DNA of 64,000 bases from Deltaproteobacteria bacterium (GTDB lineage: Bacteria > Desulfobacterota > DSM-4660 > Desulfatiglandales > HGW-15), in NCBI GenBank assembly GCA_019307745.1, contig JAFDJA010000001.1, positions 20,223-84,222 of the forward strand, given 5' to 3'. A program made the position numbers and the translations under genes. Under the pieces are notes generated by a model, which worked only from the letters and a program-made list of their open reading frames with translations, did no database searches and was not told the DNA's origin. Positions within the stretch are counted from its first letter, which is position 1. Each line of letters opens with the position of its first letter. Of this stretch, positions 4,777 to 48,458 are shown piece by piece.

Positions 4777-6246
4777 ATGGCCGAAAAAACAAAGGTATTG
4801 ATAGTTGATAATAACAAGTCAGCAAGAACCCGTCTTATTGCTATCCTGAAAAAAAGTCCTGAATTTAGCCTTGACGAGGCCGGTAATGGGAAAGAGGCCC
4901 TTAAAAAAATCAAAAAATCTGCCCCGGATATCATCCTGGGTGACCTTTATATGCCTGAAATGGGGGGGCTGGAATTGTGCAAGACCATCAAAAAGGTTCC
5001 GGAATCTCAACTTGCCAGCATCTATGTGATTATTCTCAGCACCGAGGAGGATCAGAAAACCAAGATAGAGTGCATCAATGAGGGAGCAGACGATTTTCTT
5101 ACAAAACCAGTTAAGGCGGATGAACTTATGATAAGGCTGAAGGTGGGGCAGAGGACATCTCGAATCCTTCAGAGAAGAAAACTAGAAACCGAAAAAATGT
5201 TCCAGGAGATGGATGTCCTTCTCATACAGGATGGTGGTTGCGCACCGGGATACAATCCGGTAACAGCCTTTATAGCCTATCACCTGGAGGCCATTGGCAG
5301 GGCAGTGTATGCGACCAGGGAAGGATTTAAATCCCTTGTAGAAAAGGAAGACAACTTCTTACGCCTTGTATATGACCCTGGGATGTTTAAGAAACTGGAC
5401 CATATCCCGGGAGTATTTCACGCTGCGCCCCTTTCCGAATGGCGGGGTGCCCAGTTGCGAAGCGAAAGATTCAGGGATTTTATAAAACTAGAGGTTCAAA
5501 AAAAAGCGACAGCCCTGATCAAGCACAAAAGGGTAAAGGCCATCATAGCCATCGGTGGCAATGGCACCTTCAGGGGGATTCATTCCCTGTGTCAGCTCCT
5601 GCCCACCTCCATTCAGGTCTTTTTTATACCGGTGACCATTGACAGTGATGTGGCAGGAACCGATTGTGTTGGTCAGTATACAGGAGTTGAAGTGGGTGCT
5701 GAAAAAATCAGATGCTATATGGCTGATGCCAGGACCCATAAACGTGTCTATATAATTGAAATGATGGGGGCAAACAGCGGTTTTCATGCCCTTCACTCCT
5801 GTCTGGGCTCAAGGGCGCATCTGGCAGTGCTTCCTAACAGCAGGATTGACCACAAAAAAGTGGTTGATGCCATCAATCAAAGGGAGGAATGTGTAATCGT
5901 GGTGGCAGAGGGGTATAAAAAAGAGGATAGAGCCAGGGAAAAGACCACACTCAATGCGGCAGAATACTTCCACAAGGAGCTTCTGGCCACAAAGAAAAAG
6001 ATAAACAGAAAGGTGGTGTGCGAACCCTTTTCAAGGGATATAAGGGGTGCCGCACCCAACAATATGGACATATCCCTTGCCCAGCGCATGGCCTATAATG
6101 TTGCAGGCTATCTCAAGGCCGGAACCTCCAGGCTGATGCCGGCTGTCCAGTCAGGCAGGGAATACGCCATCCCATTTAACGAGATAACAACAGACAATAT
6201 GAAGGAAGATGACCTGCTTGTCTTGTCAAACCGGTTGACAAAATGA
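4777..6246 (+). CDS. Response-regulator receiver domain fused to a divergent 6-phosphofructokinase-fold domain
   Basis: The N-terminal ~120 aa are CheY-like (VLIVDNNKS..., IILGDLYMPEMGG, LTKPV). The C-terminal ~340 aa align by eye to the PfkA motifs GGCAPGYN, IGGNGT, PVTIDSDV and EMMGANSG. Confidence 0.8.
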   Translation: MAEKTKVLIVDNNKSARTRLIAILKKSPEFSLDEAGNGKEALKKIKKSAPDIILGDLYMPEMGGLELCKTIKKVPESQLASIYVIILSTEEDQKTKIECINEGADDFLTKPVKADELMIRLKVGQRTSRILQRRKLETEKMFQEMDVLLIQDGGCAPGYNPVTAFIAYHLEAIGRAVYATREGFKSLVEKEDNFLRLVYDPGMFKKLDHIPGVFHAAPLSEWRGAQLRSERFRDFIKLEVQKKATALIKHKRVKAIIAIGGNGTFRGIHSLCQLLPTSIQVFFIPVTIDSDVAGTDCVGQYTGVEVGAEKIRCYMADARTHKRVYIIEMMGANSGFHALHSCLGSRAHLAVLPNSRIDHKKVVDAINQREECVIVVAEGYKKEDRAREKTTLNAAEYFHKELLATKKKINRKVVCEPFSRDIRGAAPNNMDISLAQRMAYNVAGYLKAGTSRLMPAVQSGREYAIPFNEITTDNMKEDDLLVLSNRLTK

Positions 6247-6403
6247 CTGGATGGATGAAGGCTCCCGCCGGCTGTCCAGTATTTAATTCATTATTTCATT
6301 GTTGCTTCAGTTATAAAAGTTCAAACTTGACTTCAGAGTAATTGTAAAATATGCATAGCCTCTGTTCTCTCCAAGTAAGGAGTTATTGCTCTTTTCAAAT
6401 CAA

Positions 6404-6462
6404 GAATATGACTCAAAATAACCTTAGACTTTATATAATGGTTTGAAGAGAAGAATTACGCC
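6404..6462 (+). repeat. Dispersed copy of the AATATGACTCAAAATAACCTTA...TATATAATGGTTTGAAGAGAAnAATTAC motif family
   Basis: Near-identical by eye to 37072-37132 and similar to 36808-36868. Lies in the gap between the REC-PFK gene and the thiC 3' end. Confidence 0.6.
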
Positions 6463-6553
6463 GGGCACTATTTGAAAATGGTCTGGCCTGAAAGGTAGCG
6501 TGTCATACACAAAAAAGGCTGTTCTCCTGAGGGGTTGCTTTTTTCCACTGCCG

Positions 6554-7837
6554 TCAGTCCTCAAAATATTCGCGCACCTGTTTGATGGCACAAAATTTCC
6601 CGCACATGGTACACACATCGTCTTCATGGGGCGGATTTTCCTTCCTTACCCTTCTGGCCTTTACAGGGTCAATCGCCAGTTCCATCTGGGCATCCCAGTC
6701 CAGATTTTTTCTTGCCTCTGCCATCTTTCTATCTCGCTCTATTGCAAACTCGTGTCCCCGTGCGATATCCGCGGCATGGGCAGCTATCTTTGTCACTATC
6801 ACACCCTCTCTCACATCATCCGCGTCTGGCAGGGACAGATGCTCAGCAGGGGTGACATAGCAGAGAAAATCAGCTCCTGCCTCTCCAGCCACAGCCCCTC
6901 CAATCGCGCAGGCCACATGATCATAGCCCGCGGCAATATCTGTCACAAGGGGGCCAAGCACATAAAAAGGGGCATGATGGCATAACTGCTTCTGGAGCTG
7001 AACATTGGTCTTGATCTGATCCAGTGGCACATGGCCAGGCCCTTCAATCATTACCTGTACCCCCTCTTTCCACGCAAGTTTTGTAAGATGCCCCAGTGTC
7101 ATTAGTTCATGAATCTGCGCCCTGTCCGTTGCATCGGCAAGGCAACCGGGCCTCAGTCCGTCTCCAAGACTGAGGGTGACGTCATATCTCTTTGCTATAT
7201 CAAGAAGTCTGTCAAAATGCTCATACAATGGATTTTCCCTGTCATGGTGCAGCATCCAGGCAGTAAGAAAGGCTCCGCCCCTGCTTACAACGTCTGTGAT
7301 CCTGCCCTGACCCTTCAACATCTTGAGTGCTCCCCTTGTGAGGCCGCAATGGACGGTAATAAAATCAACCCCGTCAGCGGCCTGAGTCTCTATCGCATCA
7401 AATAACTTGTCCACAGTAAGGTGAATTACTCCGCCATTTTCATTTATTGCTTCCACAACAGCCTGATAAACAGGCACCGTTCCAACACATACAGAAGAGG
7501 CCTCAAGCACCTTTCTGCGGCACTCATTGATGTCTCCCCCTGTGGAAAGATCCATCACGGCATCAGCACCTGCGTCAATTGCAACCCTGACCTTGGTCAG
7601 CTCTTCCTCAAGCACAGACCTGTCAGAGGAGGTGCCTATGTTCGCGTTCACCTTGATAAATAGCCCTTCACCAATTCCGCAGGGATCAAGCCCCTTATGA
7701 TTTCTATTGGCAGGTATCACTATCCTGCCCTGGGCCATCTTCTTCCTGAGCCATTCCCTGTCCACCCGCTCTTTGTCTGCTACTATCTTCATCTCAGGAG
7801 TGATGACTCCCGCAATTGCCTCTTGTAATTGTGTCAT
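6554..7837 (-). CDS. thiC: Phosphomethylpyrimidine synthase
   Basis: Short-form ThiC, conserved throughout (e.g. VPVYQA, EGPGHVP, C-terminal CTMCGKFCA cluster). Start set at MTQLQEA (CAT at 7835-7837). Confidence 0.93.
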   Translation of the reverse strand: MTQLQEAIAGVITPEMKIVADKERVDREWLRKKMAQGRIVIPANRNHKGLDPCGIGEGLFIKVNANIGTSSDRSVLEEELTKVRVAIDAGADAVMDLSTGGDINECRRKVLEASSVCVGTVPVYQAVVEAINENGGVIHLTVDKLFDAIETQAADGVDFITVHCGLTRGALKMLKGQGRITDVVSRGGAFLTAWMLHHDRENPLYEHFDRLLDIAKRYDVTLSLGDGLRPGCLADATDRAQIHELMTLGHLTKLAWKEGVQVMIEGPGHVPLDQIKTNVQLQKQLCHHAPFYVLGPLVTDIAAGYDHVACAIGGAVAGEAGADFLCYVTPAEHLSLPDADDVREGVIVTKIAAHAADIARGHEFAIERDRKMAEARKNLDWDAQMELAIDPVKARRVRKENPPHEDDVCTMCGKFCAIKQVREYFED

Positions 7838-7947
7838 TTGTCTAAATCCTCTATAAATTCCGGATTGCACAGATCCACCTTCCGCATATCCGGGTTAAAC
7901 TCCATATTTCCAAACCAGCCCAGTCTATATTCAAAATGCCTATATAA

Positions 7948-8727
7948 TCATGGGCGCGAACATCCAGGATTTACCACCCCCGCCCCTTTGCCCCATGAAT
8001 AGCTTTTGTTAATGGCCTTTCTGGTAAAATTATGTGCCTGCTGGGCGGCTTTCACGGGGGAGTATCCCTGGCCCAGATATGTTGCAAGGGAGGTTGAAAA
8101 AACACACCCGCTCCCGTGGGTATCCTCAGTTTCTATCTTTTCCCCTTTAAAACAGTGAAAGGCATTACCATCATACAGAAGGTCTACACATTCTCCCTGC
8201 AGATGACCCCCTGTTACCACGACATCGGGCCCCAGCTCTTTTATCTTTCTTGCCGCCCTTTCCATGCCTTCAAGATCTGTGACCTCCTGTCCGGAAAGAA
8301 TGCCTGCCTCCATGAGATTAGGCGTAACAACCCTGGCAAGGGGGAGGAGCTCTTCCCTCAAAAATCGAACTCCTTCATTATCCAGCAAGTCTGTTCCGGA
8401 AGATGATCTTGTGACCGGATCAACCACCACGGGAGAGATCCCATGCCTGCTGACTACTGCCACAAGTTCCCTGACAATCCTGCCTGTTGACAGCATGCCG
8501 ATCTTTATTGCGTCAGGCGTAAGGTCGTTCAATACGGCCTCAATCTGCCTTGCAACAAATCCGGCAGGGAGGTCCTGAACACCTGAGATCCCCTGGGAGT
8601 TCTGTGCGGTAACAGCGGTAATAGCGGTTAGGGCATGACCACCAAGGGCGGTTATTGTCTTGATGTCTGCCTGGATTCCCGCGCCTCCACAGGAGTCCGA
8701 ACCGGCTATGGTCAGTATGTATTTCAT
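7948..8727 (-). CDS. thiD: Hydroxymethylpyrimidine/phosphomethylpyrimidine kinase
   Basis: The ORF-track reading frame extends to 8913, but homology begins at MKYILTIAGSDSCGGAGIQADIKT (CAT at 8725-8727). HMP-P kinase motifs are present throughout. Confidence 0.9.
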   Translation of the reverse strand: MKYILTIAGSDSCGGAGIQADIKTITALGGHALTAITAVTAQNSQGISGVQDLPAGFVARQIEAVLNDLTPDAIKIGMLSTGRIVRELVAVVSRHGISPVVVDPVTRSSSGTDLLDNEGVRFLREELLPLARVVTPNLMEAGILSGQEVTDLEGMERAARKIKELGPDVVVTGGHLQGECVDLLYDGNAFHCFKGEKIETEDTHGSGCVFSTSLATYLGQGYSPVKAAQQAHNFTRKAINKSYSWGKGAGVVNPGCSRP

Positions 8728-9038
8728 AATAACTGGACTACCGGACCTAAAAATAAAAAAGTTCTTCAAATTAACGGAATAAGAATTTCCCGCGCCTTTA
8801 AACGGCCTTACCTTCTTTTTTTCCTGTGCCTTCCAGGGCCAGCCATTGACCTGTCTACCCTTTACAGGCCGTTTTCTTAGGAGAAAGCTAACAGCAACCC
8901 CATATGCTGTCAATCAAAATTCCCCGTTACGGCATTCTCACAACTTGACTTTACTCTACATTACCATTTAGAATCAGATCTTTTACAGGTCATAACCTTT
9001 GTCCCGCTCTTTAAATTACCTTTGCCGGGGTATCTGAC

Positions 9039-33635: not shown

Positions 33636-36551
33636 TTACATTACATTAATCACATTCAGCCATTCCTTGTGTGTTTCCATGGATTTCTTAATAGCTTCCT
33701 GTGAACCAAGGACCTTGACCATCCCCTTAACTTTTACCTCTTCAAGCACTTCGGCAAAGGCCCTGAAATCTTCTATTGTAGTCCCGAGTATCTCATCACG
33801 TACCTTTTGTCTGTCATCATCCGTCACTCCGGAAAAATAACGAACCATTGAGGCATACCCTTTTGCATCAGGCAGCATATACTCATCCAGATTGCCGATA
33901 CTTCCAATTATACCCTTTAAAAGCTCCTCATCGCTGAGTTCTATATGCCTTAGAAAGTCCGCTGCCTGATCAAACACATCAATAGTCTTTAAGAGATTCG
34001 GGTCACGGTAAGAGACAAAGGTCAGGGTACCTGTCAGACGCTCAAACATGCAGAAGCCTCCATATGCGCCTCCCTGTACACGGACCCTGTCCCATAAAAG
34101 AGAATTGCCCAGATAGCGACAGATCACATGGATAGATCCATGGTAATTGTATCCCAGGCTGTATATGTTGGCACCCTTTCCCACATAATTGATCCTGGAT
34201 GGAATGGTCAGCCCCTCAAATTCCGGGATATGTCCTGGTTCCCATTCCTGAATGCCGCTTTTCTGGACAGGCATGACATCGAGGAACCCTCTTATCTGAG
34301 GCATGAGTTGCGCCCATCCTTCCTGATCAAGGGTTGCATTAATAAACACGGCATTGCGGTTTATAAGGATCCGATGCATCTGTCTAAGGTCATTTAACAC
34401 AGAATCCCATCGATTATCCACCTCCTCCACAAGCTTTCGCAGAAAAAACAGGTAGTTCAGTCCAGACATCTCTTCTGCTGCCCAGTCAGTCTCTGTAAAA
34501 TGGGCCCTCAAGCGCTTATTCACTATCCTGTGACCTGACGGAACAAGGTTTTGCTCTACCCTGGCCTTGGTCTCGAGCAGCATCTGTTTGAACCGCGCTT
34601 GGTTGTCCAGGCGTACATTTAAAAGCACATCCTGAAGAATATCTAACATATCCTGGGTCTGGGGCATCATGGCCTTTGCCTGGAGAAGAAGCATGGTTGC
34701 GCTATGTTTGCTGTCTGTGATCCCGGATGTAAAAAATCCGGATCCGATTCCGCCGGTCTTTCTGCTTATCCTCTGAGTGACAGTAACATAATCCTCCTTT
34801 TCCGTCCCCATCTCCTGGAGCGCCCGGCCAAAGATCCGAGTATAAGGGAGGTACTTCTGGGGGAGCGAATGAAGATCAAAGCCAATATCCAGATAGGCTA
34901 TCCCGTTTGTAAAAAGATCATGATACAGAACCTCTGTCTCACCCATTTTAAGCTTTTCTATGGGGATTGTCTTGTTTTTTGTGTCCAGGTCAGAAATGCC
35001 CAGCATGGGAATAGCCTCAAGAGCGGAAGGAGGATCAGGTGCCGCTTGAAGCAGCCTTAACTCTTTGGTATTGCTTATAATGTTCTCCAACTCATCCTCA
35101 GTCATCCTGTCTTTTACCCTTTTCAGCTTGGCCTCTTCGGCTGCGGTCTCCTCTTCTCCCAGGCCGGGATCAGGCCTCAGAACTACGGCTGTCCTGTGCC
35201 TGTTCTTTATCAGCCATTTATCTATCAGCGTTTCAAAAAAAACGTCCTCAGATGCAATATGCAACTTCACTGCCTGAAGAGGTTCTTCCCAGGCGAGCAG
35301 AGCAAAGGGATCTCCGTCATATAGCCAGGTGGTCAGGGAGCCAAGCATCAGGAGAAGTCCGCGGGGATAACTCCCTGAGTTGTTCTCACGGAGGGCAAAC
35401 TCTGTCATATTCAGTGCCGCCTCAATAGTCTTGGAATCGATCCCATTATTAACAAGGCGGGAAAGGGTATTTAGGACAAGCTCTTGAACCTTGTCCGCAT
35501 TGTCAGGTTCAACACCTTTGAGTCCAGCAGAAAAATACATCTGCCTAACCTCTGTCCCAAGGCCCATACCGGCCAAGTCCTCTCCTAATCCTGACTCTAT
35601 CAAGGCCTTTCTCAAAGGAGAACCTGGCATTCCCAGTAGGATATATTCCAAGATGCTTAAGGAAAGGGTCAGTTCTCTGTCCAAGGTCTCAGGTAAGAGC
35701 CAGTTAAGTGTAAACATACCCTTTGGCCCGTTTTCCTCTCCTCCTGCAGCAAAGGACCTGATAAGGCGCTGGGGTTTATCAAAATGGGGCTGCAGGGCAA
35801 CTGCGGACTTGACCTCAATACGATCAAAATCCTTTAAATATTCATTTGCGATCTCCAGCCTCTTTTCAGGATCATCATCCCCATAAAAACAGATGCGGCT
35901 GTTAGTAGGGTGATAATACTTGCCATGAAAAGCCTTAAACTGCTCAAAGATGAGGTCCGGAATCTTTTTGGGATCGCCGCCTGAATCAAAACCATATGCG
36001 GTATCAGGAAAAAGCGACTGAAAGGAGTGCTCTGATAACAGGGCCTCCGGTGACGAATAAGAGCCCTTCATCTCATTAAATACAACGCCTTTATAAATAA
36101 GAGGTTCTTTTATCTTATCAAGCTCATAGTGCCACCCCTCCTGCTGAAGGATAAAAGGTGTAAGTCTGGGGTAAAAAACAGCATCGAGATAGACGTCAAT
36201 AAGATTATAAAAGTCCTGCAGGTTCTGACTGGCAAGCGGATAGCAGGTTTTGTCCGGATATGTCATGGCATTTAAAAAGGTCTGAAGGGATCCCTTTAAT
36301 AGCTCTACAAAAGGCTCCTTTACCGGGTACTTTCTGGAACCACAGAGAACAGAGTGTTCAAGGATATGAGGCAGACCGGTGGAATCGGAGGGCGGAGTGC
36401 GGAAAGAGATGCCAAAGACCTTGTTTTCATCATCATTTATTAGCGACAGAAGCTCTGCCCCGGTCTTTTTATGGCAGTACAGAAGAGCATTTGTCTTTAG
36501 CTCCTGGATCTCCTTTTCCCGTATAAGTTCAAAACCATGGATAACAGACAT
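33636..36551 (-). CDS. M16C-family (PreP/pitrilysin-like) zinc metalloprotease
   Basis: 971 aa with the inverted zinc motif HILEH near the N-terminus (GLPHILEHSVLCGSRKYP), and the length and architecture of presequence-protease-like enzymes. Confidence 0.9.
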   Translation of the reverse strand: MSVIHGFELIREKEIQELKTNALLYCHKKTGAELLSLINDDENKVFGISFRTPPSDSTGLPHILEHSVLCGSRKYPVKEPFVELLKGSLQTFLNAMTYPDKTCYPLASQNLQDFYNLIDVYLDAVFYPRLTPFILQQEGWHYELDKIKEPLIYKGVVFNEMKGSYSSPEALLSEHSFQSLFPDTAYGFDSGGDPKKIPDLIFEQFKAFHGKYYHPTNSRICFYGDDDPEKRLEIANEYLKDFDRIEVKSAVALQPHFDKPQRLIRSFAAGGEENGPKGMFTLNWLLPETLDRELTLSLSILEYILLGMPGSPLRKALIESGLGEDLAGMGLGTEVRQMYFSAGLKGVEPDNADKVQELVLNTLSRLVNNGIDSKTIEAALNMTEFALRENNSGSYPRGLLLMLGSLTTWLYDGDPFALLAWEEPLQAVKLHIASEDVFFETLIDKWLIKNRHRTAVVLRPDPGLGEEETAAEEAKLKRVKDRMTEDELENIISNTKELRLLQAAPDPPSALEAIPMLGISDLDTKNKTIPIEKLKMGETEVLYHDLFTNGIAYLDIGFDLHSLPQKYLPYTRIFGRALQEMGTEKEDYVTVTQRISRKTGGIGSGFFTSGITDSKHSATMLLLQAKAMMPQTQDMLDILQDVLLNVRLDNQARFKQMLLETKARVEQNLVPSGHRIVNKRLRAHFTETDWAAEEMSGLNYLFFLRKLVEEVDNRWDSVLNDLRQMHRILINRNAVFINATLDQEGWAQLMPQIRGFLDVMPVQKSGIQEWEPGHIPEFEGLTIPSRINYVGKGANIYSLGYNYHGSIHVICRYLGNSLLWDRVRVQGGAYGGFCMFERLTGTLTFVSYRDPNLLKTIDVFDQAADFLRHIELSDEELLKGIIGSIGNLDEYMLPDAKGYASMVRYFSGVTDDDRQKVRDEILGTTIEDFRAFAEVLEEVKVKGMVKVLGSQEAIKKSMETHKEWLNVINVM

Positions 36552-36680
36552 ATAATTCTCCAGAAAAAGTTCAAGTGTTTAATGGGCAGGATCCATAAAA
36601 AAGCTTTTCATTTACTCCCTCAAAATCCCTTGGGATTAAAGCTGTTGTAAAGTTTGCATAGCCTCTCTTCCAAGGGAAAG

Positions 36681-36714
36681 GCGGAATTATTCTCTACAAA
36701 CCATTATATCTAAT
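36681..36714 (-). repeat. Motif copy (minus orientation): GATTAGATATAATGGTTTGTAGAGAATAATTCCG
   Basis: The reverse complement of 36681-36714 matches the core TATAATGGTTTGnAGAGAAnAATT.CCG. It lies ~140 nt upstream of the M16 protease ATG. Confidence 0.7.
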
Positions 36715-36807
36715 CTTCCCTCCGGACTGTTTTAAAATATGTCGGCCTTGCACGGATTATATAACAGGCTAGCATATCAGGACAAATGGCAAGCTTTTTT
36801 CAGGGCA

Positions 36808-36868
36808 GGAATATGACTCCAAGCAATCTTAACGGTTATATAATGGTTTGAAAAAAACAGTTGCTCCG
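36808..36868 (+). repeat. Motif copy (plus orientation, long form)
   Basis: GGAATATGACTCCAAGCAATCTTAACGGTTATATAATGGTTTGAAAAAAACAGTTGCTCCGC. Confidence 0.7.
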
Positions 36869-36943
36869 CTCCTTTTACTCCCTCAAAATCCCTTGGGTTT
36901 AAAGCTGTTGTAAAAATTTGCACAGCATCTCTTCCAAGGGAAA

Positions 36944-36977
36944 GGCGGATTTATTCTCTATAAACCATTATATCTAA
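36944..36977 (-). repeat. Motif copy (minus orientation)
   Basis: The reverse complement reads GATTAGATATAATGGTTTATAGAGAATAAATCCGC. Confidence 0.7.
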
Positions 36978-37071
36978 TCTTCTATCCCGGCTGTTTCAAA
37001 AGATACCGGCCATGCACACATTATATAACAGCCTGGGGTGTTAAAATAAAAGGCCATCTCTGTTCAGATCA

Positions 37072-37132
37072 GGAATATGACTCAAAATAACCTTAAGGGT
37101 TATATAATGGTTTGAAGAGAATAATTACTCCG
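37072..37132 (+). repeat. Motif copy (plus orientation, long form)
   Basis: GGAATATGACTCAAAATAACCTTAAGGGTTATATAATGGTTTGAAGAGAATAATTACTCCGC. Closest to the 6404-6462 copy. Confidence 0.75.
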
Positions 37133-37203
37133 CTGAATCCTGATTGACTTCTTGGTAACTCTGTGGATTCGCACCAACCCACCATGCAGATCGGATCCCA
37201 TAC

Positions 37204-37224
37204 AGATAATGGTTTGAAGAAAAA
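37204..37224 (+). repeat. Truncated motif copy
   Basis: GATAATGGTTTGAAGAAAAAG. Confidence 0.5.
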
Positions 37225-37459
37225 GGGATGGCCGATTCTATCGTCCTGCATTTAATTATATTGTTAATCTCTGTTGTAAAAAATTACAGTTAAAAATTCT
37301 CATCATGCATGAAAATTGATGTTTCAGAAGTTCCCCTCTCAAAACAGCGCGGTCCTTTTTTCATTTAACCAGTCAGTGGTGATGACGGATTTTGAAATAT
37401 CCGAATTATAGACAGGATTGATATTGAAAAACAGGGTCATGATTTCCCCGGTAGCGGCA

Positions 37460-38407
37460 CTATTTCCGGAAGTCTGCCTGATGATCCAGAAACCATTGAT
37501 AGGTCCTAGATATACCATCCTTAAGAGAAACCGTGGGCCTCCAGCCTAGCCCTTCAAGCCGGGAAACATCAAGGAGTTTCTGGTGCGGCCCGTCTGGTTT
37601 TGATCTGTCGAACTCGATCCCTCCATTAAAGCCAACAATATCCCTTATCATCTCAGCAAGCCCTTGAATGGGGATATCCTTTCCAGTCCCCACGTTGATT
37701 ATGTCCTCCTGGTTATAATTTTCCATGAGAAAGCATACCGCATCGGCCAGGTCCTGTACAAAAAGAAATTCCCTCCTTGGTTCACCTGTGCCCCAGACCA
37801 TCACCCTGGAAAGGCCTGAGACCTTTGCATCATAAAATTTTCTTATCAAGGCCGGAAGCACATGGGAATTTTCCAGGTGGAAATTATCCCCCGGGCCATA
37901 GAGATTGGTAGGCATCAGGGAGATAGCATTAAATCCATACTGCCTGCGATATGCCTGACACATCTTGATCCCTGCGATCTTGGCAATGGCATACCATTCG
38001 TTCGTCTTCTCCAGCTCCCCGGTCAACAGGTAGTCTTCCTTCATGGGCTGGGGTGCAAGCCTCGGATAAATGCATGACGAGCCTAAAAACAGGAGTTTTT
38101 TTGTATTATTCTTATATGCGGCATCAATTATATTGGCCTGGATCAGCAAATTATCCCTTATAAAATTAACAGGATATCTGTTGTTTGCATGAATTCCCCC
38201 AACCCTGGCTGCCGCCAGAAACACATAATCAGGTCTTATCTGTTGAAAAAATCCGTTTACATCTGCCTGACAGGTCAGGTCCAGCTCTTCATGGGTCATG
38301 GTTATCAGATTGCTAAACCCATCCTTTTTCAACTTATCAAGAATTGCACTGCCTACAAGGCCGCGATGACCTGCCACATATATCCTGTCCTTTTTATTCA
38401 TATCCAT
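37460..38407 (-). CDS. fcl: GDP-L-fucose synthase
   Basis: 315 aa: [29 protein letters not shown]. Overlaps gmd by 14 nt. Confidence 0.92.
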
Positions 38408-40976: not shown

Positions 40977-42410
40977 ATGAAGAACACGCTTTTATATACG
41001 ATCACTTTTGCGCTCGCTCTTTTTCTCGCAGCCAGCGGAACTGCAACAGCTGTTGACAATTCGGACCCATCAATGGAGCCGGTCAAGCAGAAACTCGGCA
41101 TTATCAAATATGACAAGAAAAAGGCATGGGAGGGCTATACCCTGTATGCCCCAAAGCACTTCAACACTACACATATTATGGACATGGACGGACGTCTTAT
41201 AAATACATGGACCAGTGAGTATGAACCTGGGCAGTCTGTCTATCTACTCGAAAACGGGAACCTTCTACATTGCTGTTTTACCCATAACACATCATTCATT
41301 GGTGGCGGCGAAGGTGGGAGGCTAGAAGAATATAACTGGGAAGGAGACATGGTCTGGTCCATGTGGTACTCCGATGAAACCAAGCTTATGCATCATGACA
41401 TCGAACCGATGCCAAACGGTAATATTCTGGCCATGGTTGTTGAAAAAAAATCAAAAGAGCAGTGCCTGCAGGCTGGTTTCAACCGCGTGCGTGATGACTA
41501 TCTTTTTCCAGAGTATATTGTGGAGATTGAGAGATTCGGCTCCCAGGGCTATGAAGTTGTATGGGAATGGCATGTATGGGACCACCTTATCCAGGATAAT
41601 GACTTCTCAAAGGATAACTATGGGATCATTGCTGAGCACCCGGAACTGGTTTCCATCAAATCAAGCGGGCGGAGAGGAGTGAGGGCCTTCTGGAACCATG
41701 GAAACTCTATCGACTATAATCCCAAACTTGACCAGATCGCGCTCAATGCCCGATCACAAAACGAATTCTGGGTAATTGATCACTCAACCACAACTGAAGA
41801 GGCAAAAGGCCATACCGGAGGAAAATCCGGTAAAGGCGGAGACATTGTTTACAGGTGGGGAAATCCTGCGATGTATGGCGCTGGTACCAGGGCAGACCAG
41901 ACCCTGTTGATGCAGCACGATTCTCAATGGATATCCGAAGGCCGTCCTGGGGAGGGAAACATGTTGATCTATAACAATGGTAAAGGCCGAGGTTACTCTT
42001 CTGTGGTGGAGATCATAACACCGGTCAAAAAAGACGGCAGTTATCCGGAACTCAAACCAGGCGAAGCCCATCTGCCCAAACAGGCTACATGGGAATTTAC
42101 AACTGATCCTAAAGAGGATATGTACTCTACGGAAATCTCAGGCGCACAGCGCCTTCCCAACGGTAATACCCTTATATGTGCCGGCACAGTTGGTCGTTTT
42201 TTGGAAGTCACCCATGACAAAGAGGTTGTCTGGGAATATATAGTTCCCTTTGACGGTGCTGGTCCTCTGAAGCAGGGAGATCTGATTAAGCGCGACTCCA
42301 GAGGACACCAAATGAATGCTGTTTTTAAGGTAACCCGTTATTCTCCGGATTATCCCGCATTTAAAGGCAGAGACATGTCCCCTATTGCAGAATCTTTAAT
42401 GGCACAGTAA
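40977..42410 (+). CDS. Secreted arylsulfotransferase (ASST)-family beta-propeller protein
   Basis: Signal peptide and repeated NGN motifs (LENGNLLHC, HHDIEPMPNGNILA, RLPNGNTLIC) typical of the ASST family. Family assignment is by recollection. Confidence 0.65.
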   Translation: MKNTLLYTITFALALFLAASGTATAVDNSDPSMEPVKQKLGIIKYDKKKAWEGYTLYAPKHFNTTHIMDMDGRLINTWTSEYEPGQSVYLLENGNLLHCCFTHNTSFIGGGEGGRLEEYNWEGDMVWSMWYSDETKLMHHDIEPMPNGNILAMVVEKKSKEQCLQAGFNRVRDDYLFPEYIVEIERFGSQGYEVVWEWHVWDHLIQDNDFSKDNYGIIAEHPELVSIKSSGRRGVRAFWNHGNSIDYNPKLDQIALNARSQNEFWVIDHSTTTEEAKGHTGGKSGKGGDIVYRWGNPAMYGAGTRADQTLLMQHDSQWISEGRPGEGNMLIYNNGKGRGYSSVVEIITPVKKDGSYPELKPGEAHLPKQATWEFTTDPKEDMYSTEISGAQRLPNGNTLICAGTVGRFLEVTHDKEVVWEYIVPFDGAGPLKQGDLIKRDSRGHQMNAVFKVTRYSPDYPAFKGRDMSPIAESLMAQ

Positions 42411-42791
42411 AAAATCTTCCCGGGAAAGGGGATAACAGCTTGATCCAGGGCAATAATTACTCCTCTCTTCAGGCTGTTACTCCTCCTTTCCAATTCCTCA
42501 TATGGGGAGCTTGAACTCGCCATGTGTTGCCGGGTCCACTCTACTGGACATCTCTCTCCTCCTCCCCCCCCTTCCCTCTCACTGCCATGGTCCAGGGGCC
42601 TCCTGTTAATCTATATTGGCATCTCTGCTTGATCCCATGATTATCTTTTGCCAGGATTTTCCTTGACTAAAACAACAATGAATGATAGCCAAAAAATCTT
42701 CCAAAATTCAAAAACATCTCCCCTGACACAATAGAATTATCCTGGGATTAACAAATTCTTGGATTGTTTAGGAAAGGGGAAGAAGGGTATA

Positions 42792-42971
42792 ATGAGCACA
42801 ATACAGCCCGAAAGTGAAAAACTAAGACAGGCCGTCAAATGGGTCTCTGATCAGACTCTGGATAATATAAATAACTCTGTTGCCACCCTTATCCAGGAGG
42901 CGGCTTTAAAATTTAACCTCTCCCCAAAGGATGAAATTTTCCTGTACACCTTTTATGGAAAAAAACTATAG
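42792..42971 (+). CDS. Small hypothetical protein (59 aa)
   Basis: ATG preceded by a purine-rich GGAAAGGGGAAGAAGGG tract. No recognisable motifs. Confidence 0.3.
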   Translation: MSTIQPESEKLRQAVKWVSDQTLDNINNSVATLIQEAALKFNLSPKDEIFLYTFYGKKL

Positions 42972-43007
42972 GAATTCAATCGACAGGACTCTGGACTGAA
43001 CCTGTGA

Positions 43008-43265
43008 CTACATTTCCTGGAGGGTTCTCTCTTTCATATGGTTAAAAATTGTTTTTGAAAGGCAGACAAAAACCAATAAGCTGACTATAATAACGACCGC
43101 TCCCACCACTATGGGTACAAAAAAACCCTGTTGATGTTGCTCATACAGGCCAATATTGATACAGATAACAGCTACAAAATCAACATACCCGGTCAGTAGA
43201 AGAAGACAAAAAAACATCGTCAACAGGAAGGCTCGTTTAAATGGAAACGGCAATTGATAGTTCAA
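43008..43265 (-). CDS. Small two-TM membrane protein downstream of dnaA (start uncertain)
   Basis: The ORF begins with TTG overlapping the dnaA stop (TTGA). The first in-frame ATG is at 43217. Two hydrophobic helices. Confidence 0.35.
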   Translation of the reverse strand: MNYQLPFPFKRAFLLTMFFCLLLLTGYVDFVAVICINIGLYEQHQQGFFVPIVVGAVVIIVSLLVFVCLSKTIFNHMKERTLQEM

Positions 43266-44605
43266 TTCATTACATCCTTCAATCGAAGATCAAGATAATC
43301 AATCTCTTTTTTTACCCTGCTGTCAGACCTGATCTTTTGTGCTATCATTTCTGCTGAATATAATACGGTAGAATGATTGCGATCAATTGACCGGCCTATC
43401 TCTTCAAGTGTTGAATCTGTATTTTGCCGGCAGAGGTATATGTAGACATTCCGGGGAAATGTATGGATCTTTTTTCTGGACTTTGATCTGAGCATAGACA
43501 GATCAACCTTATAATACTTACACACGATCTTTTCAATATCACCTATTGACAAACATCCATGATCAGGTACAAGGCTGATTACAGCCTCTCTTGCAAGATC
43601 AAGATCGATCTTTGCCTTCATGAGTTCTGATCTGGCTTTAAGGAATCTTAGGGCACTCTCTATCTGGCGAACATCACGGCTGATATGCTTGGCAAGGAAA
43701 TGGACTATCTCATCTGAAAGGACCATTCCCAACTCAATGGATTTTCTTTCTATTATCTTAATCCTGGTCTCTAGATCCGGGGTTCCAAGGGTTCCTATAA
43801 TTCCGGATGTCAGACGAGATGAAAGCCCCTCAGAAATATTGGGAATATCCTTAGGCAGTAATGGGCTGGTAAAAACAATCTTTTTATTAGCATTCAGCAG
43901 GGCATCAAGTGTATGCTCCAGCTCCTGCTGCATTTTCTCCTTACCACTGAAAAAATTCACATCTTCAAGAAGGAGAACATCACAGGATCGACGGTATCTG
44001 TTTTTAAACTCTTCTATGCGGTTATTTTTTATGGCAAACACCATCTCATTTACAAAGTCCTCTGCTGTAATATAAAAGGCCCTGGTTTCAGAGTTCTCTT
44101 CCAGGATAGCTTGCCCTACGGATTGGGACAGGTGGCTCTTCCCGAGACCGGTTTTAGACAAAAGAAACAGGGAGTTATAAGACATGCCCCCTCTTGTAGC
44201 CAGAGCCTTTGATGCTGAATAGGCAAATTCATTACTTTTTCCAACAACAAACCGATCAAAGGTAAATTCCCTTTTAAACCTTCTTTTTCCATTACCACGA
44301 TGCACATTGGGCAGTGTCAACTGCTTACTGACTTTAAACATATCTGGAACAGGCTTTTTTCTTTCCATTGGATTGACAATAAGGACGAATCTGGCGTCAC
44401 AATTAATGGTCTTTGAAAGCTTGTCCTGCATGATATTTAAATAATTCTCAGTAATCCAGTTGAGAGCAAACTTGTTTGGGCACTCAAGAATGATCTTATC
44501 CTTTTTTTGTTCCAGAAAATTTATAGGGTTGATCCACAGTGAAAAGATTTTTTCAGAAACTTCTTCCTTAATTTGATTCTTTACTTCTTCCCAAGTGGTA
44601 CCCAT
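43262..44605 (-). CDS. dnaA: Chromosomal replication initiator protein DnaA
   Basis: Walker A GLGKSHL, AAA+ box motifs, and a C-terminal DNA-binding domain (IGRSIDRNHSTVLYS). Start set at MGTTWEEVKNQ (CAT at 44603-44605). Confidence 0.95.
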   Translation of the reverse strand: MGTTWEEVKNQIKEEVSEKIFSLWINPINFLEQKKDKIILECPNKFALNWITENYLNIMQDKLSKTINCDARFVLIVNPMERKKPVPDMFKVSKQLTLPNVHRGNGKRRFKREFTFDRFVVGKSNEFAYSASKALATRGGMSYNSLFLLSKTGLGKSHLSQSVGQAILEENSETRAFYITAEDFVNEMVFAIKNNRIEEFKNRYRRSCDVLLLEDVNFFSGKEKMQQELEHTLDALLNANKKIVFTSPLLPKDIPNISEGLSSRLTSGIIGTLGTPDLETRIKIIERKSIELGMVLSDEIVHFLAKHISRDVRQIESALRFLKARSELMKAKIDLDLAREAVISLVPDHGCLSIGDIEKIVCKYYKVDLSMLRSKSRKKIHTFPRNVYIYLCRQNTDSTLEEIGRSIDRNHSTVLYSAEMIAQKIRSDSRVKKEIDYLDLRLKDVMN

Positions 44606-44867
44606 CAGAAACTCCCTTAGAAAAAAAAGTCTTATCGAAAGTACGTCGCGCAATTGTTCTGTGGGGATTTATGTAAGAAATTATATTTTATGTCAAAGCG
44701 GATTTGAATCATGCATTACTTAGGGCCGGCTTCTTTTTTGACAAAAGATAACGCTTAGATATAACGTGATTTTTCACGAATTATTGTGGAGGATACGGTT
44801 AAATAAGAAAAAAGGGATTGTGAGGTTTTTGCTTATAAATTCAAAAACTTCCAAGAATTCTTTCTAC

Positions 44868-44887
44868 TGTGTATAAAAATATCCACA
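44868..44887. promoter_or_regulatory. Pair of near-consensus, inverted DnaA boxes
   Basis: TGTGTATAA (44868-44876) and ATATCCACA (44879-44887). Each has one mismatch to TGTGGATAA / TTATCCACA, and they are separated by 2 nt. Confidence 0.55.
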
Positions 44888-45130
44888 ATCTACGATCTTC
44901 TGGTTTCTCAATATTTCACCGATTTTCTAATGATTATAAAACATTTCAGTACATTTTCCCCTTTTTAAAATTTCCCGATCTCTGCCGATTTTTGGGTAAG
45001 GTTTTTGCAGTGTCCCAAAAAGGCTAGCATCTCAAAGGGATAAAAACTTCTCATTGTTTTTGGTTTCCGTTTCATGTATAAACATATTAATTTTCTGAAA
45101 AAAATTATTTTAAAATAAATAAATCAAAAA

Positions 45131-46078
45131 ATGATTACAACAAAAAAAATAAGTATAGCCCTGATGGCTGGGGGCAGCTCAAATGAACGCGAGATCTCTT
45201 TGAATAGCGGAGACACCGTATATTGTGCCCTTGACAAAGACAAATACAACATAACACGGTATGATCCCAGGGATGACCTGGAATTGCTATTCGAGCAAAA
45301 GGCCAATATTGATTTAGCTCTTATCCTGTTGCATGGAAATCTCGGGGAAGATGGCCGTATTCAGGGCTTTCTTGATACAATAGGGCTTCCTTTTGTAGGG
45401 TCAGGAGTTCTCGCAAGTGCCATAGCCTCTGATAAAAAAATTGCCAAACGCATTTATGAAAGTACAGGCCTGAATGTAATTAAGGATACCTTCCTCATCA
45501 AGGGTGAAAATTTCGATCCAGCCCTGATTATGGAGAGTCTCGGCCCTTTAACGGTTGTAAAACCTGTTTCTGAGGGATCAAGCCTTGGCATATCTGTCTG
45601 TAAAAACAGGGAGGAGCTCGTCAAAGGAATCCACCTGGCATTTCAGTTCAATCCAGAGGTTCTGGTCGAACAATTTATTAAGGGACGAGAGATCTCCTGC
45701 TGTGTCATTGGAAATAAAGAACTCACAACCCTTCCCCTTGTTGAGATATTGCCTGATAAGAAATACGATTTTTTTAACTACGAGGCCAAATACACACCAG
45801 GGGCCACAAGAGAGATATGCCCTGCAACTATACCAGAAGACATAGCAGAACTGGCCCGGGACTGCGCGAGAAAGGCACACTCCGCTCTAAAATGCACGGT
45901 CTGGAGCAGGACCGATATGATTATCAAGGGATCCGAGGTATATATTTTAGAAACAAACACAATCCCAGGCATGACAGAGGCCAGCCTGGTTCCATTATCT
46001 GCCAAGGCGGCAGGCATCTCCCTGTCCCAGCTGCTTGATAGACTAATAGATCTTTCGCTTGATCCCTTCCCCGGCTAA
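45131..46078 (+). CDS. ddl: D-alanine--D-alanine ligase
   Basis: KISIALMAGGSSNEREISLNSG, LHGNLGEDGRIQGFLD, and an ATP-grasp C-terminal (ETNTIPGMTE). Confidence 0.93.
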   Translation: MITTKKISIALMAGGSSNEREISLNSGDTVYCALDKDKYNITRYDPRDDLELLFEQKANIDLALILLHGNLGEDGRIQGFLDTIGLPFVGSGVLASAIASDKKIAKRIYESTGLNVIKDTFLIKGENFDPALIMESLGPLTVVKPVSEGSSLGISVCKNREELVKGIHLAFQFNPEVLVEQFIKGREISCCVIGNKELTTLPLVEILPDKKYDFFNYEAKYTPGATREICPATIPEDIAELARDCARKAHSALKCTVWSRTDMIIKGSEVYILETNTIPGMTEASLVPLSAKAAGISLSQLLDRLIDLSLDPFPG

Positions 46079-46691
46079 ATCTCCTCTCCAGGTCCTTCCA
46101 TAACACAAAGTCTCCTCCTTTGCTCTTGACCTTCCCACACGACCTGAACGGAACTTAAAAGTCCTGCCGATCTCGTTTCCTTGTACTGAAGGACAGGAAG
46201 GTTATCCCACACAGCACCATAAGAGTTCCTCGGCTATTCAAAGCCGCTCATCCACCTAATTCAAACTCTTGCAAGAACAAGACATTGTGATCCATCTATA
46301 GAGTCTGACACCTTTATCTGCAGGTCTGTGAAAGGCTTTTCATGGGCCCCTTTCCACTCTGCCTTAAACTTGTAAAAAAAACGTTCGGACAGCACTGATA
46401 AAGGCCATGTTGCAACTTTTGCCTTAAAAATCCCATAAAAAAAGTTCATACCCTTCATATAGTATATATCCTTCTTGTTTGCACCAACATACGGGCCTAT
46501 GATGGATTATTGACCACGCCTGACAAAAACCAGCCTTGGCCTGCCCTTCTGAGCTTGCCATAGCCTTTCTTTCTGCATTGATCACACCATGGTGTTATTA
46601 TTTTTAGAACACATACCATATAAAGTGTAAAGTTCCCTCTGCCAGGATTTTTAGTTTTTAGGATTTCCCTGTGACAACCTTCTTCTTCAAA

Positions 46692-46707
46692 TGTTTCACG
46701 TGAAACA
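46692..46707. other. parS centromere site (perfect TGTTTCACGTGAAACA)
   Basis: Exact 16-bp palindromic parS consensus. Confidence 0.9.
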
Positions 46708-46730
46708 TTGAGACAGAAGGAAATAAGTTA

Positions 46731-46746
46731 TGTTTCACGTGAAACA
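46731..46746. other. parS centromere site (perfect TGTTTCACGTGAAACA)
   Basis: A second exact copy 39 bp from the first and ~95 bp upstream of parA. Confidence 0.9.
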
Positions 46747-46840
46747 TTTATTTTACTATGCAAACAAAGACATCTATGTTATCAGCAATCATTGAAATAG
46801 AAAAAACTCCGTTATCTTAAAAGGAAGAAAGGCAAAAATT

Positions 46841-47614
46841 ATGGGCCAAGTTATCGCTGTCGCCAACCAGAAGGGTGGAGTTGGAAAAACAACAACTGCC
46901 GTAAACCTTTCTGCATCCATTGCTGCATCTGAAAAGAGCTGTCTTTTGATTGATTGTGATCCTCAGGGAAATGCCACAACAGGGTTGGGAGTAAACATTG
47001 CGGAGCTTGAATCTGGTCTTTATGACTTTATCCTCAGCCCTGACACAGGAGGGGATGTGATTATGGAGACAGAAATATCCTGTCTTCATCTAATGGGAGC
47101 GACCGCCAGCCTCATAGGAGCTGAAGTAGAAATGTTTGTATTAGATGAAAGAGAATACCTCTTGAAAAAAAGGCTGTCCTCTTTAAGAAAAAAATATGAT
47201 TATATCCTGCTGGATTGTCCTCCTTCATTAAATTTTCTGACAATAAACGCGATGACCGCCTCGGACTGGGTCCTTGTAACTCTTCAATGTGAATATTATG
47301 CCCTTGAGGGCCTTACAGAGCTGATGAAGACTATAAGTGCGGTAAAAAAGAAGCTGAATCCCTCCCTTGAATTAGGAGGAATTGTCTTTACAATGCATGA
47401 TAAGCGAAACAACCTTTCCACCCAGGTAGTGGAGGAGGTTCGAGAACACTTTAAGGACATTGCATTTAATACTATTATTCCGAGAAACGTCAGGTTGAGT
47501 GAGGCACCAAGCTATGGGAAACCAATACTCCTCTATGACATAAAATCCAAGGGAGCACAGAAATATCTGGAACTGGCAACAGAACTTTTCGCCAGGGGAG
47601 GAAATCATGATTAA
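46841..47614 (+). CDS. parA: Chromosome partitioning ATPase ParA/Soj
   Basis: Deviant Walker A (ANQKGGVGKTTTAVNL). 257 aa. Confidence 0.93.
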   Translation: MGQVIAVANQKGGVGKTTTAVNLSASIAASEKSCLLIDCDPQGNATTGLGVNIAELESGLYDFILSPDTGGDVIMETEISCLHLMGATASLIGAEVEMFVLDEREYLLKKRLSSLRKKYDYILLDCPPSLNFLTINAMTASDWVLVTLQCEYYALEGLTELMKTISAVKKKLNPSLELGGIVFTMHDKRNNLSTQVVEEVREHFKDIAFNTIIPRNVRLSEAPSYGKPILLYDIKSKGAQKYLELATELFARGGNHD

Positions 47615-48458
47615 ACGGCAGGCATTAGGCAAAGGATTATCAGCACTCATTCCAAATGCTGACCAGCAGGAAATCGGCAGTGACGGATATTTCCAATGTC
47701 CGATCGAAGACATTCAGCCCAATCCCTATCAGCCCCGATTAAGTTTTTCAGAGCCTGAACTGGAAGAGCTGATACTCTCAATAAGAGAAAACGGAGTAAT
47801 AACGCCGATCCTGCTTAGCAAGACTGATAATGGGTATCAACTTATAGCTGGCGAAAGACGCTGGAGGGCCGCTCAAAGGGCAGGGCTTGATAGGATTCCT
47901 GCCGTTGTCAGGGAGACTACCGCAGTAGAAACGCTGGAGCTGGCACTGATAGAAAATATCCACAGGCAGGACCTAAGTCCAATTGAAGAGGCGCTTGCCT
48001 ATCAAAGATGGCTTGAGGATATGGGAACGACACAGGAAGTTCTAGCCCGGAAGATGGGAAAGGACCGTTCAACAATAACCAATATGCTTCGACTCTTAAA
48101 CCTTCCCCGCAATATACAGAAAGATCTGATTGAGGGTCGCTTAACAATGGGACACTCCCGAGTCCTGGCAGGCCTTAAAACATCACAGGAACAGCAGTTG
48201 GTCAGAGATAAGATTATCAAAGGGGCTCTTTCTGTGAGGCAGACAGAGGGGCTCGTAAAAAGGTTGCAAGCAAAGGATTCTAACAGCAATAAAAACAAGG
48301 AAGGAGCCATTGATTCATACATTCAATCCATAGCGACTAACCTTGAACAATCGTTAGGTACAAGGGTTAAGATCAAGAGGCGCGGGAAAAAAGGCAGCAT
48401 TAATATCCTTTTCCATTCAGATGAAGAACTGGACAGGCTTATTGAGTGTTTAGGTTAA
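47607..48458 (+). CDS. parB: Chromosome partitioning protein ParB/Spo0J
   Basis: ALGKGLSALIP, GERRWRAA (arginine patch), and an HTH region. Overlaps parA by 8 nt. Confidence 0.93.
   Translation: MIKRQALGKGLSALIPNADQQEIGSDGYFQCPIEDIQPNPYQPRLSFSEPELEELILSIRENGVITPILLSKTDNGYQLIAGERRWRAAQRAGLDRIPAVVRETTAVETLELALIENIHRQDLSPIEEALAYQRWLEDMGTTQEVLARKMGKDRSTITNMLRLLNLPRNIQKDLIEGRLTMGHSRVLAGLKTSQEQQLVRDKIIKGALSVRQTEGLVKRLQAKDSNSNKNKEGAIDSYIQSIATNLEQSLGTRVKIKRRGKKGSINILFHSDEELDRLIECLG

Follow-up and report, generated by a model that had tools for sequence, protein, structure and literature searches.

The stretch of DNA analyzed here, a window of 64,000 nt from a deltaproteobacterium, carries a tandemly duplicated, promoter-like repeat in a 908-bp intergenic spacer (36552-37459). 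The spacer is bounded on one side by the start of a gene for an M16C/PreP-type peptidase (M16; 33636-36551, minus strand; Pfam M16C_assoc, PreP_C and Peptidase_M16_C). On the other side, opposite M16, are the minus-strand gmd-fcl genes, of which fcl, coding for a GDP-L-fucose synthase-like epimerase (37460-38407, minus strand; Pfam Epimerase/GDP_Man_Dehyd), bounds the spacer with its stop codon. The original prediction, made from the sequence alone, had noted that no open reading frame (ORF) of 60 aa or more exists in this region, and indeed none lies wholly inside it: the largest small ORFs measure 52 and 48 aa, while one of 59 aa overlaps the end of fcl. The small ORFs of the spacer (30-59 aa) gave zero Pfam matches even at E<=1 and are not repeated between the two units of the array, and the conserved block contains only mini-ORFs of 7-9 codons, located in the hairpin loop. 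The repeat matches no catalogued family. In its workings it resembles known phenomena, namely promoter reuse and Correia-type promoter-bearing repeats, and it fits the definition of none of the mobile-element, RNA or switch families against which it was tested. It is a low-copy, species-restricted and recombining duplication of promoter-like DNA that apparently evolves near-neutrally.

Tandem Repeats Finder resolved positions 36611-37134 as a single tandem array (period 264 bp, 2.0 copies, 83% matches, zero indels), in agreement with the 263-bp duplication noticed earlier, and a gap-free repeat finder returned the same two units. Unit A (36611-36873) consists of hairpin A, minus motif A, a central part and the long-form plus motif c2, and unit B (36874-37136) consists of hairpin B, minus motif B, its own central part and the long-form plus motif c3. 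The repeat finder also detected inverted arms inside each unit, which are 30-38 nt long, 74-90% complementary and 128 nt apart; these replace the 13-bp terminal inverted repeats proposed at first. The arms allow two framings of an element, either 190 bp (motif-central-motif) or 134 bp (motif-hairpin-motif). Partial copies had been suspected on both flanks, and the right one stood. This degenerate third copy (37196-37356, plus strand) aligned with a score of 79 versus 37±9 for shuffled sequences, and it contains motif c4 followed 66 nt on by CTGTTGTAAAAAATTACAG (37271-37288), a spacing equal to that from c2 to the loop of hairpin B. The left candidate, which overlaps the M16 start, was insignificant (z about 1).

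Hairpin A (36626-36677) is formed by TCCCTTGG ... CCAAGGGA with inner helices (arms 36626-36633/36670-36677); on the minus strand it is part of the putative M16 leader, and UUUU comes after it. Hairpin B (36889-36941; arms 36889-36896/36934-36941), flanked by the convergent motifs c2 and minus B, is 93% identical to it. The 8-bp hairpins of the original prediction are thus present, with coordinates shifted by 1 nt. Conservation between the units is uneven, with identities of 93% in the hairpin, 94% in the minus motif, 71% in the central part, 89% in the promoter/upstream part of the long form and 62% after position +1. The hairpin and minus motif together are identical at 98/105 positions and the central part at 65/92 (Fisher p=2.5e-5). 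This contrast could reflect constraint on the leader part or its conversion, of which this locus offers direct evidence (see below).

The motif core, TATAATGGTTTG, occurs 7 times at <=1 mismatch versus 0.5 expected, and 7 occurrences were reached in 0/100 shuffles. A motif profile (nhmmer) found exactly six copies in the window, five in the spacer in both orientations and one at 6.4 kb, and these are the six listed in the original prediction. On the plus strand the profile placed c1 at 6430-6464, c2 at 36835-36870, c3 at 37099-37134 and c4 at 37202-37236, and on the minus strand it placed minus A at 36710-36680 and minus B at 36974-36944. It also gave a marginal, degenerate match at 6401-6379 (minus). 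The seventh TATAATGGTTTG match (25805, minus), which is inside an ORF and was unrecovered by the profile, looks like chance. TATAAT is perfect in 5/6 copies. Homology between the two orientations begins sharply 3 nt upstream of TATAAT and runs ~25 nt downstream, so that the shared part is as originally described and includes no -35 element. The motif itself is neither a dyad nor a short direct repeat.

Minus motif A (36680-36714), GATTAGATATAATGGTTTGTAGAGAATAATTCCGCC, has its TATAAT at 36708-36703, a candidate -10 element for M16, and is kept in all six assemblies compared below; minus motif B (36944-36978, minus strand) has the core TATAATGGTTTA and no separate copy in one-unit strains. The plus-oriented long form is common to three copies, as had been reported, and 6389-6459 is 89% identical to 37058-37128 over 71 nt. 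Its copy c2 (36808-36869, plus), GGAATATGACTC ... TATAATGGTTTG ..., has a degenerate leader, which on the minus strand gives the U7 tract after hairpin B. The best-preserved copy, c3 (37072-37133, plus; TATAAT at 37103-37108), has ATGACT 20 nt upstream and a spacer dyad, ATAACC TTAAG GGTTAT, between this hexamer and the -10, which is broken in c1 and c2. The remaining copy, c4 (GATAATGGTTTG, 37205-37216, plus), is decayed, with GATAAT for TATAAT; like c3, it points to the fcl 3' end.

The dispersed copy (6338-6465, plus) sits between the stop codons of a response-regulator-phosphofructokinase fusion gene and thiC. It is a partial unit of ~124 nt, from which about 110 nt of the unit are deleted, and it comprises the hairpin loop with its 3' arm, a degenerate minus motif (6379-6401) and long-form c1 (TATAAT 6434-6439). 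Its left part is 85% identical to unit A/B and it is 89% identical to c3, a uniform likeness that fits one duplication followed by drift. The hairpin remnant folds poorly (z -0.9/-0.3). The left flank, 6280-6335, is orthologous to the flank of a relative, which was used to set the boundary of the copy, and the copy was found in all four strains seen. The alignable flank 6280-6335 also holds a promoter-like remnant, TTGACT-N17-TATGCA.

We compared the spacer in six independent assemblies (the window, L098, L099, L264, L102 and L263, the last a contig of 73.6 kb). Two units are present in the window, L098, L099 and L264, and one unit in L102 and L263. In the one-unit form, A-left is joined to B-right within the minus motif, across 36687-36950; because A and B differ by 17%, this form is a deletion by unequal or homologous recombination and not the ancestral state. 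Its occurrence in two projects makes assembly collapse unlikely, and the presence of the duplication in four assemblies makes it unlikely that the duplication itself is an assembly artefact. In L264, several differences in unit A shift to the unit B states (36697, 36719-20 and 36805), which indicates gene conversion between units, and its c2 core has undergone a T->C substitution. L102 and L263 lack the convergent pair of c2 and minus B. Every strain retains the arrangement of minus motif, hairpin, M16 ribosome-binding site (RBS) and start, with c3 diverging across 128 bp, and no inverted central segment was seen in the six assemblies.

Substitution counts between strains gave no strong signal of purifying selection, with a hint only for the hairpin and a 12-nt core. 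Hairpins were the least variable segment (1/208, 0.5%; p=0.10, marginally lower than the third-codon-position rate of 2.2%), followed by long forms (3/199, 1.5%), minus motifs (2/105, 1.9%) and central parts (14/275, 5.1%). At the available resolution the array drifts at about the neutral rate.

The repeat family is restricted to one species-level population of an uncultured sulfate-reducer-like (Desulfobacterales-like) bacterium. The original prediction had matched it to no described element, and this held up. Rfam gave nothing at gathering score (best matches at chance level, E 0.65-5.8, searched to E<=10); plasmid BLAST, phage BLAST and a viral-contig scan found no related sequence; and a literature string search returned no match to a described element. 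Two exact-pattern scans of 185,579 GTDB species genomes, one per species, yielded scattered chance matches only, among them a 'Desulfobacterales' match (L243) that proved to be a coding-region coincidence. In a metagenome scan, 51 loci were retrieved, and only L102 and L133 match beyond the 19-mer; they are orthologues of the two window loci from a 96-99% identical strain. These two loci were recovered in ~1/3 of sample-by-locus opportunities with no further locus appearing, and from this recovery rate the number of other intact copies in the genome is probably no higher than about three. A metagenome match that briefly seemed c4-like (L113) came from an unrelated AT-rich phage-like contig. 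Eleven other metagenome contigs (L100, L101, L115, L117, L126, L128, L129, L134, L137, L143 and L146) share an identical promoter-like stretch, GAAAAAGATATAATGGTTTATAGAGAATGATTAG, which matches minus motif B over 23-27 nt; this looks like chance, the contigs representing an unrelated, widely sampled organism.

Relatives were equally devoid of the element. Profiles of the unit, long form, hairpin and motif (nhmmer) detected nothing in relatives when run against 262 unrelated loci. The identity of M16 homologues falls from 98% within the species to 68% in the nearest relatives, whose M16-orthologue loci are without the motif; in two that were inspected, the upstream spacers are 564 nt and 80 nt. 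A cross-genome search for the core and unit, suggested with the original prediction, produced orthologous loci in same-species strains and nothing in other lineages. No diverged homologue of the element was found in the genome, metagenome and relative-locus searches.

The position of the array points to M16: no other protein gene could sensibly be driven by a motif copy. Being monocistronic and convergent with the trp operon, M16 must have its promoter in the spacer; ~145 nt separate minus A from the M16 start downstream of it, an interval that contains the hairpin and an RBS (GGAG). The reading we prefer, tentatively and with less than even confidence, is that the array is a species-specific, copy-number-variable set of tandem, inverted and dispersed duplicates of the M16 core promoter and leader. 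The original interpretation of the motif as a -10 element plus a common transcript 5' end, giving M16 a structured leader, thus remains the most economical, because minus A is kept in every strain, one-unit strains included. The anatomy of the repeat, its polymorphism, its restriction to one lineage and its lack of coding or mobility genes were observed directly; promoter activity, start sites and a leader role are what we infer. The ~35-nt motif would be a core-promoter module, with TATAAT as -10, GGTTTG as discriminator, a start ~7 nt downstream and a conserved stretch of the first ~20 transcribed nt (AGAGAAUAAUU.C.CCGC). The M16-proximal minus copy is most likely the M16 promoter, with a predicted +1 near 36695 and a leader of ~145 nt, whose 52-nt hairpin and UUUU could attenuate transcription or stabilize the message.

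The module may have been copied in inverted orientation, leaving two copies that point in opposite directions with 128 bp between them. Tandem duplication then took in the full 264-bp block, a block fragment of ~124 nt was copied to the second locus at 6.4 kb, and the array changes by unequal crossing-over (one versus two units) and gene conversion. If they fire, c3, c1 and c2 would produce short non-coding RNAs directed at the 3' ends of fcl and thiC, both convergent genes; no protein gene lies ahead of these copies. Where two units are present, the c2 transcript would in addition cross hairpin B in antisense to that of minus B. Given the about-neutral drift, much of the array is probably an evolutionary by-product and not a dedicated multi-part device.

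A precedent for this reading is the documented reuse of near-identical promoters before unrelated sequences within one genome (PMC3575422). Like those putatively mobile promoters, a ~75-nt promoter-like segment (-60 to +20) occurs here at two loci, with 89% identity over 71 nt; unlike them, the reused copies precede no protein gene, are arranged in inverted pairs and a tandem array, and are predicted promoters only.

Several observations weigh against the interpretation as promoter and leader. A sigma-70 consensus scan calls none of the motif copies as a promoter. No TG stands at -15/-14, the minus copies are without a -35 element, and only the long form has a -35-like hexamer, ATGACT 20 nt (or TGACTC 19 nt) before TATAAT, outside the 16-18 range. 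A scan for intrinsic terminators over 36300-37700 found none, and none is visible by eye after c3. The 30-nt identity in both orientations extends into the transcribed region, which exceeds the needs of a plain promoter; terminal inverted repeats or an operator would explain it just as well. The whole spacer differs from L263 at 17/644 positions (2.6%), close to the third-codon-position rate, and in strain L266/L267 c1 is altered in its core (G->T), in its -35-like hexamer (T->C) and in its leader. Two single-nucleotide stem variants conflict on which strand is the structured RNA: a T/C difference at 36660 between A and B (G.U on plus, A-C on minus) favours the plus strand, and G36674A in L263 (C-A on plus, U.G on minus) favours the minus strand.

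The sole canonical sigma-70-like match in the repeat lies elsewhere, in the central part of unit A (TTGTCC-18-TATAAT, 36756-36785, minus strand, 10/12). Its -10 (ATTATATAAC) is conserved in unit B and its -35 is not; it is an alternative promoter candidate for M16.

The predicted RNAs were also mixed in their structural properties. On either strand the hairpins fold better than shuffled sequences, with z-scores of -2.6 (plus) and -2.4 (minus) for hairpin A and -3.8 (plus) and -3.5 (minus) for hairpin B. Putative full transcripts that contain a hairpin reached -1.3 to -3.4, and those of c1, c3 and the M16 leader were about 0; only the RNA from c2 to hairpin B, at -3.4, stands out among them. 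By eye, weak terminator candidates can be recognized on the minus strand as UUUU after hairpin A and U7 after hairpin B, and after c1 as a hairpin flanked by A6/U6 at 6509-6540. No likeness beyond +20 was found among the RNAs downstream of c1, c2 and c3.

The inverted arms and the dispersed copy can also be read as decayed copies of a small, non-autonomous, Correia-type palindromic mobile element of about 134 bp (36839-36972), the main rival explanation, which we consider unlikely. Its termini would start with TATAAT, ~35-nt terminal inverted repeats would surround a hairpin core, and the -10 would transcribe inward as in Neisseria; c3 and c1 would be solo terminal repeats, and hairpin A with minus A and c4 with its remnant would be truncated or decayed copies. 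The Correia elements of Neisseria (CREE) are imperfect palindromes of ~130-150 bp with terminal inverted repeats of ~26-35 nt, in which the first six terminal bases form a -10 hexamer transcribing inward, and they include solo repeats and give hairpin transcripts (PMC2649163). They occur in 100-250 dispersed copies with TA duplications, unrelated flanks, presence/absence polymorphism and, in long forms, an IHF site (PMC2649163). The present repeat resembles them in its imperfect palindrome (c2 ... hairpin B ... minus B, 134 bp, with inverted arms of 30-38 nt that begin with TATAAT), its apparent solo repeats and its hairpin. In addition, the best-conserved parts, hairpin and minus motif (93-94%), would be the element interior and the 71% central part its flank, and an unrelated second locus, with an ancestral left flank, holds a partial copy. 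It differs from CREE in having no sequence homology to them, no consistent target-site duplication at either framing and only two loci in 64 kb, with the metagenome adding just their orthologues (hence at most about three further intact loci) and the species genomes, plasmids, phages and viral contigs adding none. Nor was an empty site seen: none of the four strains is without the 6.4-kb copy, and the variation at 37 kb is recombination of units, not excision. Moreover, conservation among c1, c2 and c3 (89%) extends 45-60 nt beyond the 'terminus', which is not expected of a transposon flank. A search of the window ORFs submitted to Pfam (four without any match) found no transposase, recombinase or MerR-like domain, and no Correia-type IHF site is present in the region. 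The alternative of a MITE-like element raised with the original prediction thus gains from the longer inverted arms and loses on copy number, target-site duplications and empty sites.

The fold scores and U tracts suggest another possibility, that of dedicated small RNA (sRNA) genes, which we rate as rather improbable. According to this explanation, each minus copy drives an sRNA of ~85-115 nt with a 5' single-stranded AGAGAAUAAUU seed, a long hairpin and a U tract, the long-form plus copies drive others, c2 and minus B form a fully overlapping cis-antisense pair in two-unit strains, and the shared 5' end is a common seed or protein-binding tag. It accounts for the hairpins with UUUU or U7 downstream of minus A and minus B, their fold z of -2.4 to -3.8 and their low variability between strains, for the placement of the long form at convergent gene ends, where a non-coding product is the only possibility, and for the A6/U6-flanked hairpin, shared with thiC, at which a c1 transcript would end after ~95 nt. 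However, L102 and L263 do without the convergent pair, which is thus dispensable, the RNAs after c1, c2 and c3 share nothing past +20, c1 is mutating in its core and the 6.4-kb hairpin remnant folds poorly, and neither Rfam nor the terminator scan offers a match. Type I toxin-antitoxin repeats (Ibs/Sib and Ldr/Rdl, for example) and sRNA loci in tandem or cis-antisense arrangement are similar to the present array in having tandem non-coding units of ~250-500 bp in a long spacer, with convergent promoters, putative ones here, over a shared hairpin; they differ in that no hydrophobic small ORF is found here and the convergent pair is absent in some strains. A type I toxin-antitoxin locus or a pseudogene remnant was rejected for the same region, which has no credible ORF and no Pfam match.

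Conservation from -10 to about +20, a typical place for a repressor, together with inverted pairs at fixed spacing, would suit an operator, in which a DNA-binding regulator recognizes the ~30-bp motif at all copies and the inverted pairs 128 bp apart, with the array, make looping possible or let M16 and a divergent promoter be repressed cooperatively. The 19-20-nt spacing between -35 and -10 in the long form and the spacer dyad in c3 are in line with this and are, we presume, reminiscent of MerR-type promoters. We nevertheless regard an operator as improbable, since no regulator gene adjoins either locus, no MerR-like protein is among the annotated window ORFs, the motif lacks dyad or short direct-repeat symmetry, the spacer dyad is broken in c1 and c2, two loci make a very small regulon, and core substitutions are tolerated in strains. 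An inverton is scarcely credible. In such a switch, site-specific recombination at the 30-nt arms would turn around the 128-bp segment with the -35/upstream part of the long form and redirect the complete promoter from the fcl side to the M16 side. Known invertons, such as fimS and the Bacteroides capsule promoters, carry a promoter-bearing segment of ~130-200 bp between inverted repeats, and the 128-bp size is like theirs. The arms, which hold the -10, do flank a promoter-like segment beside the polysaccharide-related gmd-fcl genes, and the upstream element is at one end only; unlike in invertons, however, every unit has the same orientation in all six assemblies, no serine or tyrosine recombinase domain was found in the ORFs of the 64-kb window, the arms are imperfect (74-90% complementary), and the enclosed DNA is the least conserved.

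Two more novel outcomes, taken together, are quite improbable, their combined chance lying between those we give to the sRNA and the operator explanations: either the array is a species-specific bidirectional cassette, in which identical core promoters and 20-nt RNA 5' ends are launched in opposite directions and the unit number and convergent antisense pair tune M16 and gmd-fcl, or it marks the beginning, still at very low copy number, of a new palindromic mobile element that carries a promoter and is found outside Neisseria. The probability left over by the preferred reading and its four rivals goes to something else. Arrays of the BIME/REP or ERIC type are likewise intergenic, with a ~35-nt motif that alternates in orientation and strain variation in copy number. 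In enterobacteria, REP motifs are palindromic and GC-rich, and hundreds of them occur at the 3' ends of genes; the motif described here is instead AT-rich, non-palindromic, low-copy and centred on TATAAT. Other candidates were discarded on inspection: no GTTRRRY core sites of an integron attC/CALIN are visible by eye, and for a sigma-54 promoter in the hairpin loop TTGCA is present and the GG at -24 absent (by eye).

If the promoter reading is true, the locus would be a clean natural case of a core promoter and leader copied in inverted, tandem and dispersed form, and raw material for studying the origin of non-coding and antisense transcripts and regulatory rewiring. Wild populations of this uncultured Desulfobacterales-like bacterium are still polymorphic for copy number. 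The restriction to one lineage, the few copies and the near-neutral drift speak against a system that is widespread or new in mechanism, and the finding opens no long-standing question.

Additional features of the window were recorded in the course of these analyses. The gene upstream of the dispersed copy (4777-6246) encodes a response-regulator receiver domain fused N-terminally to phosphofructokinase; it has 538 homologues, and the named ones are all from Thermodesulfobacteriota/Deltaproteobacteria. In a 78%-identical relative (L268, 4001-6102) the fusion gene is followed by HU and not by a convergent thiC. The thiD-thiC genes (6554-9038, minus) gave no Rfam match to a TPP riboswitch upstream or between the genes, even at E<=1. 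Within M16 itself, L099 has an N-terminal deletion of roughly 50-60 nt (2930-2940; window ~36430-36490) and is called as 876 aa, and the 3' end of the gene carries an AATGT x4.6 microsatellite (L098 10539-10560; window ~33640-33660), with 971 versus 973 aa.

The window is origin-proximal, with dnaA (43262-44653, minus), ddl and parA/parB within 43262-48458 and two perfect parS sites, TGTTTCACGTGAAACA, at 46692 and 46731; the gene after dnaA is not dnaN. The spacer upstream of dnaA is 477 bp long (GC 0.32) and has two facing DnaA-box-like 9-mers (44868-44876 and 44879-44887). The parS sites and the proximity of dnaA and parAB, 6-10 kb off, raised the possibility that the M16-fcl spacer is a replication origin, which was rejected: 36552-37459 has 0 DnaA boxes at <=1 mismatch, and at <=2 mismatches their density is 4.4 per kb versus a window mean of 3.9, with no enrichment. 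Downstream of dnaA, an ORF-poor stretch of 851 bp (42411-43261) is overlapped by an 85-aa ORF (43008-43265) that overlaps the dnaA stop, has no Pfam domain and is also called in L263 and L264. The window has the adjoining arylsulfotransferase gene (40977-42410) in intact form; in L263 (4406-5838) it is broken into pieces of 179 aa and 234 aa, and in L264 (4981-5517) most of it is deleted, which indicates a strain-variable or decaying gene.

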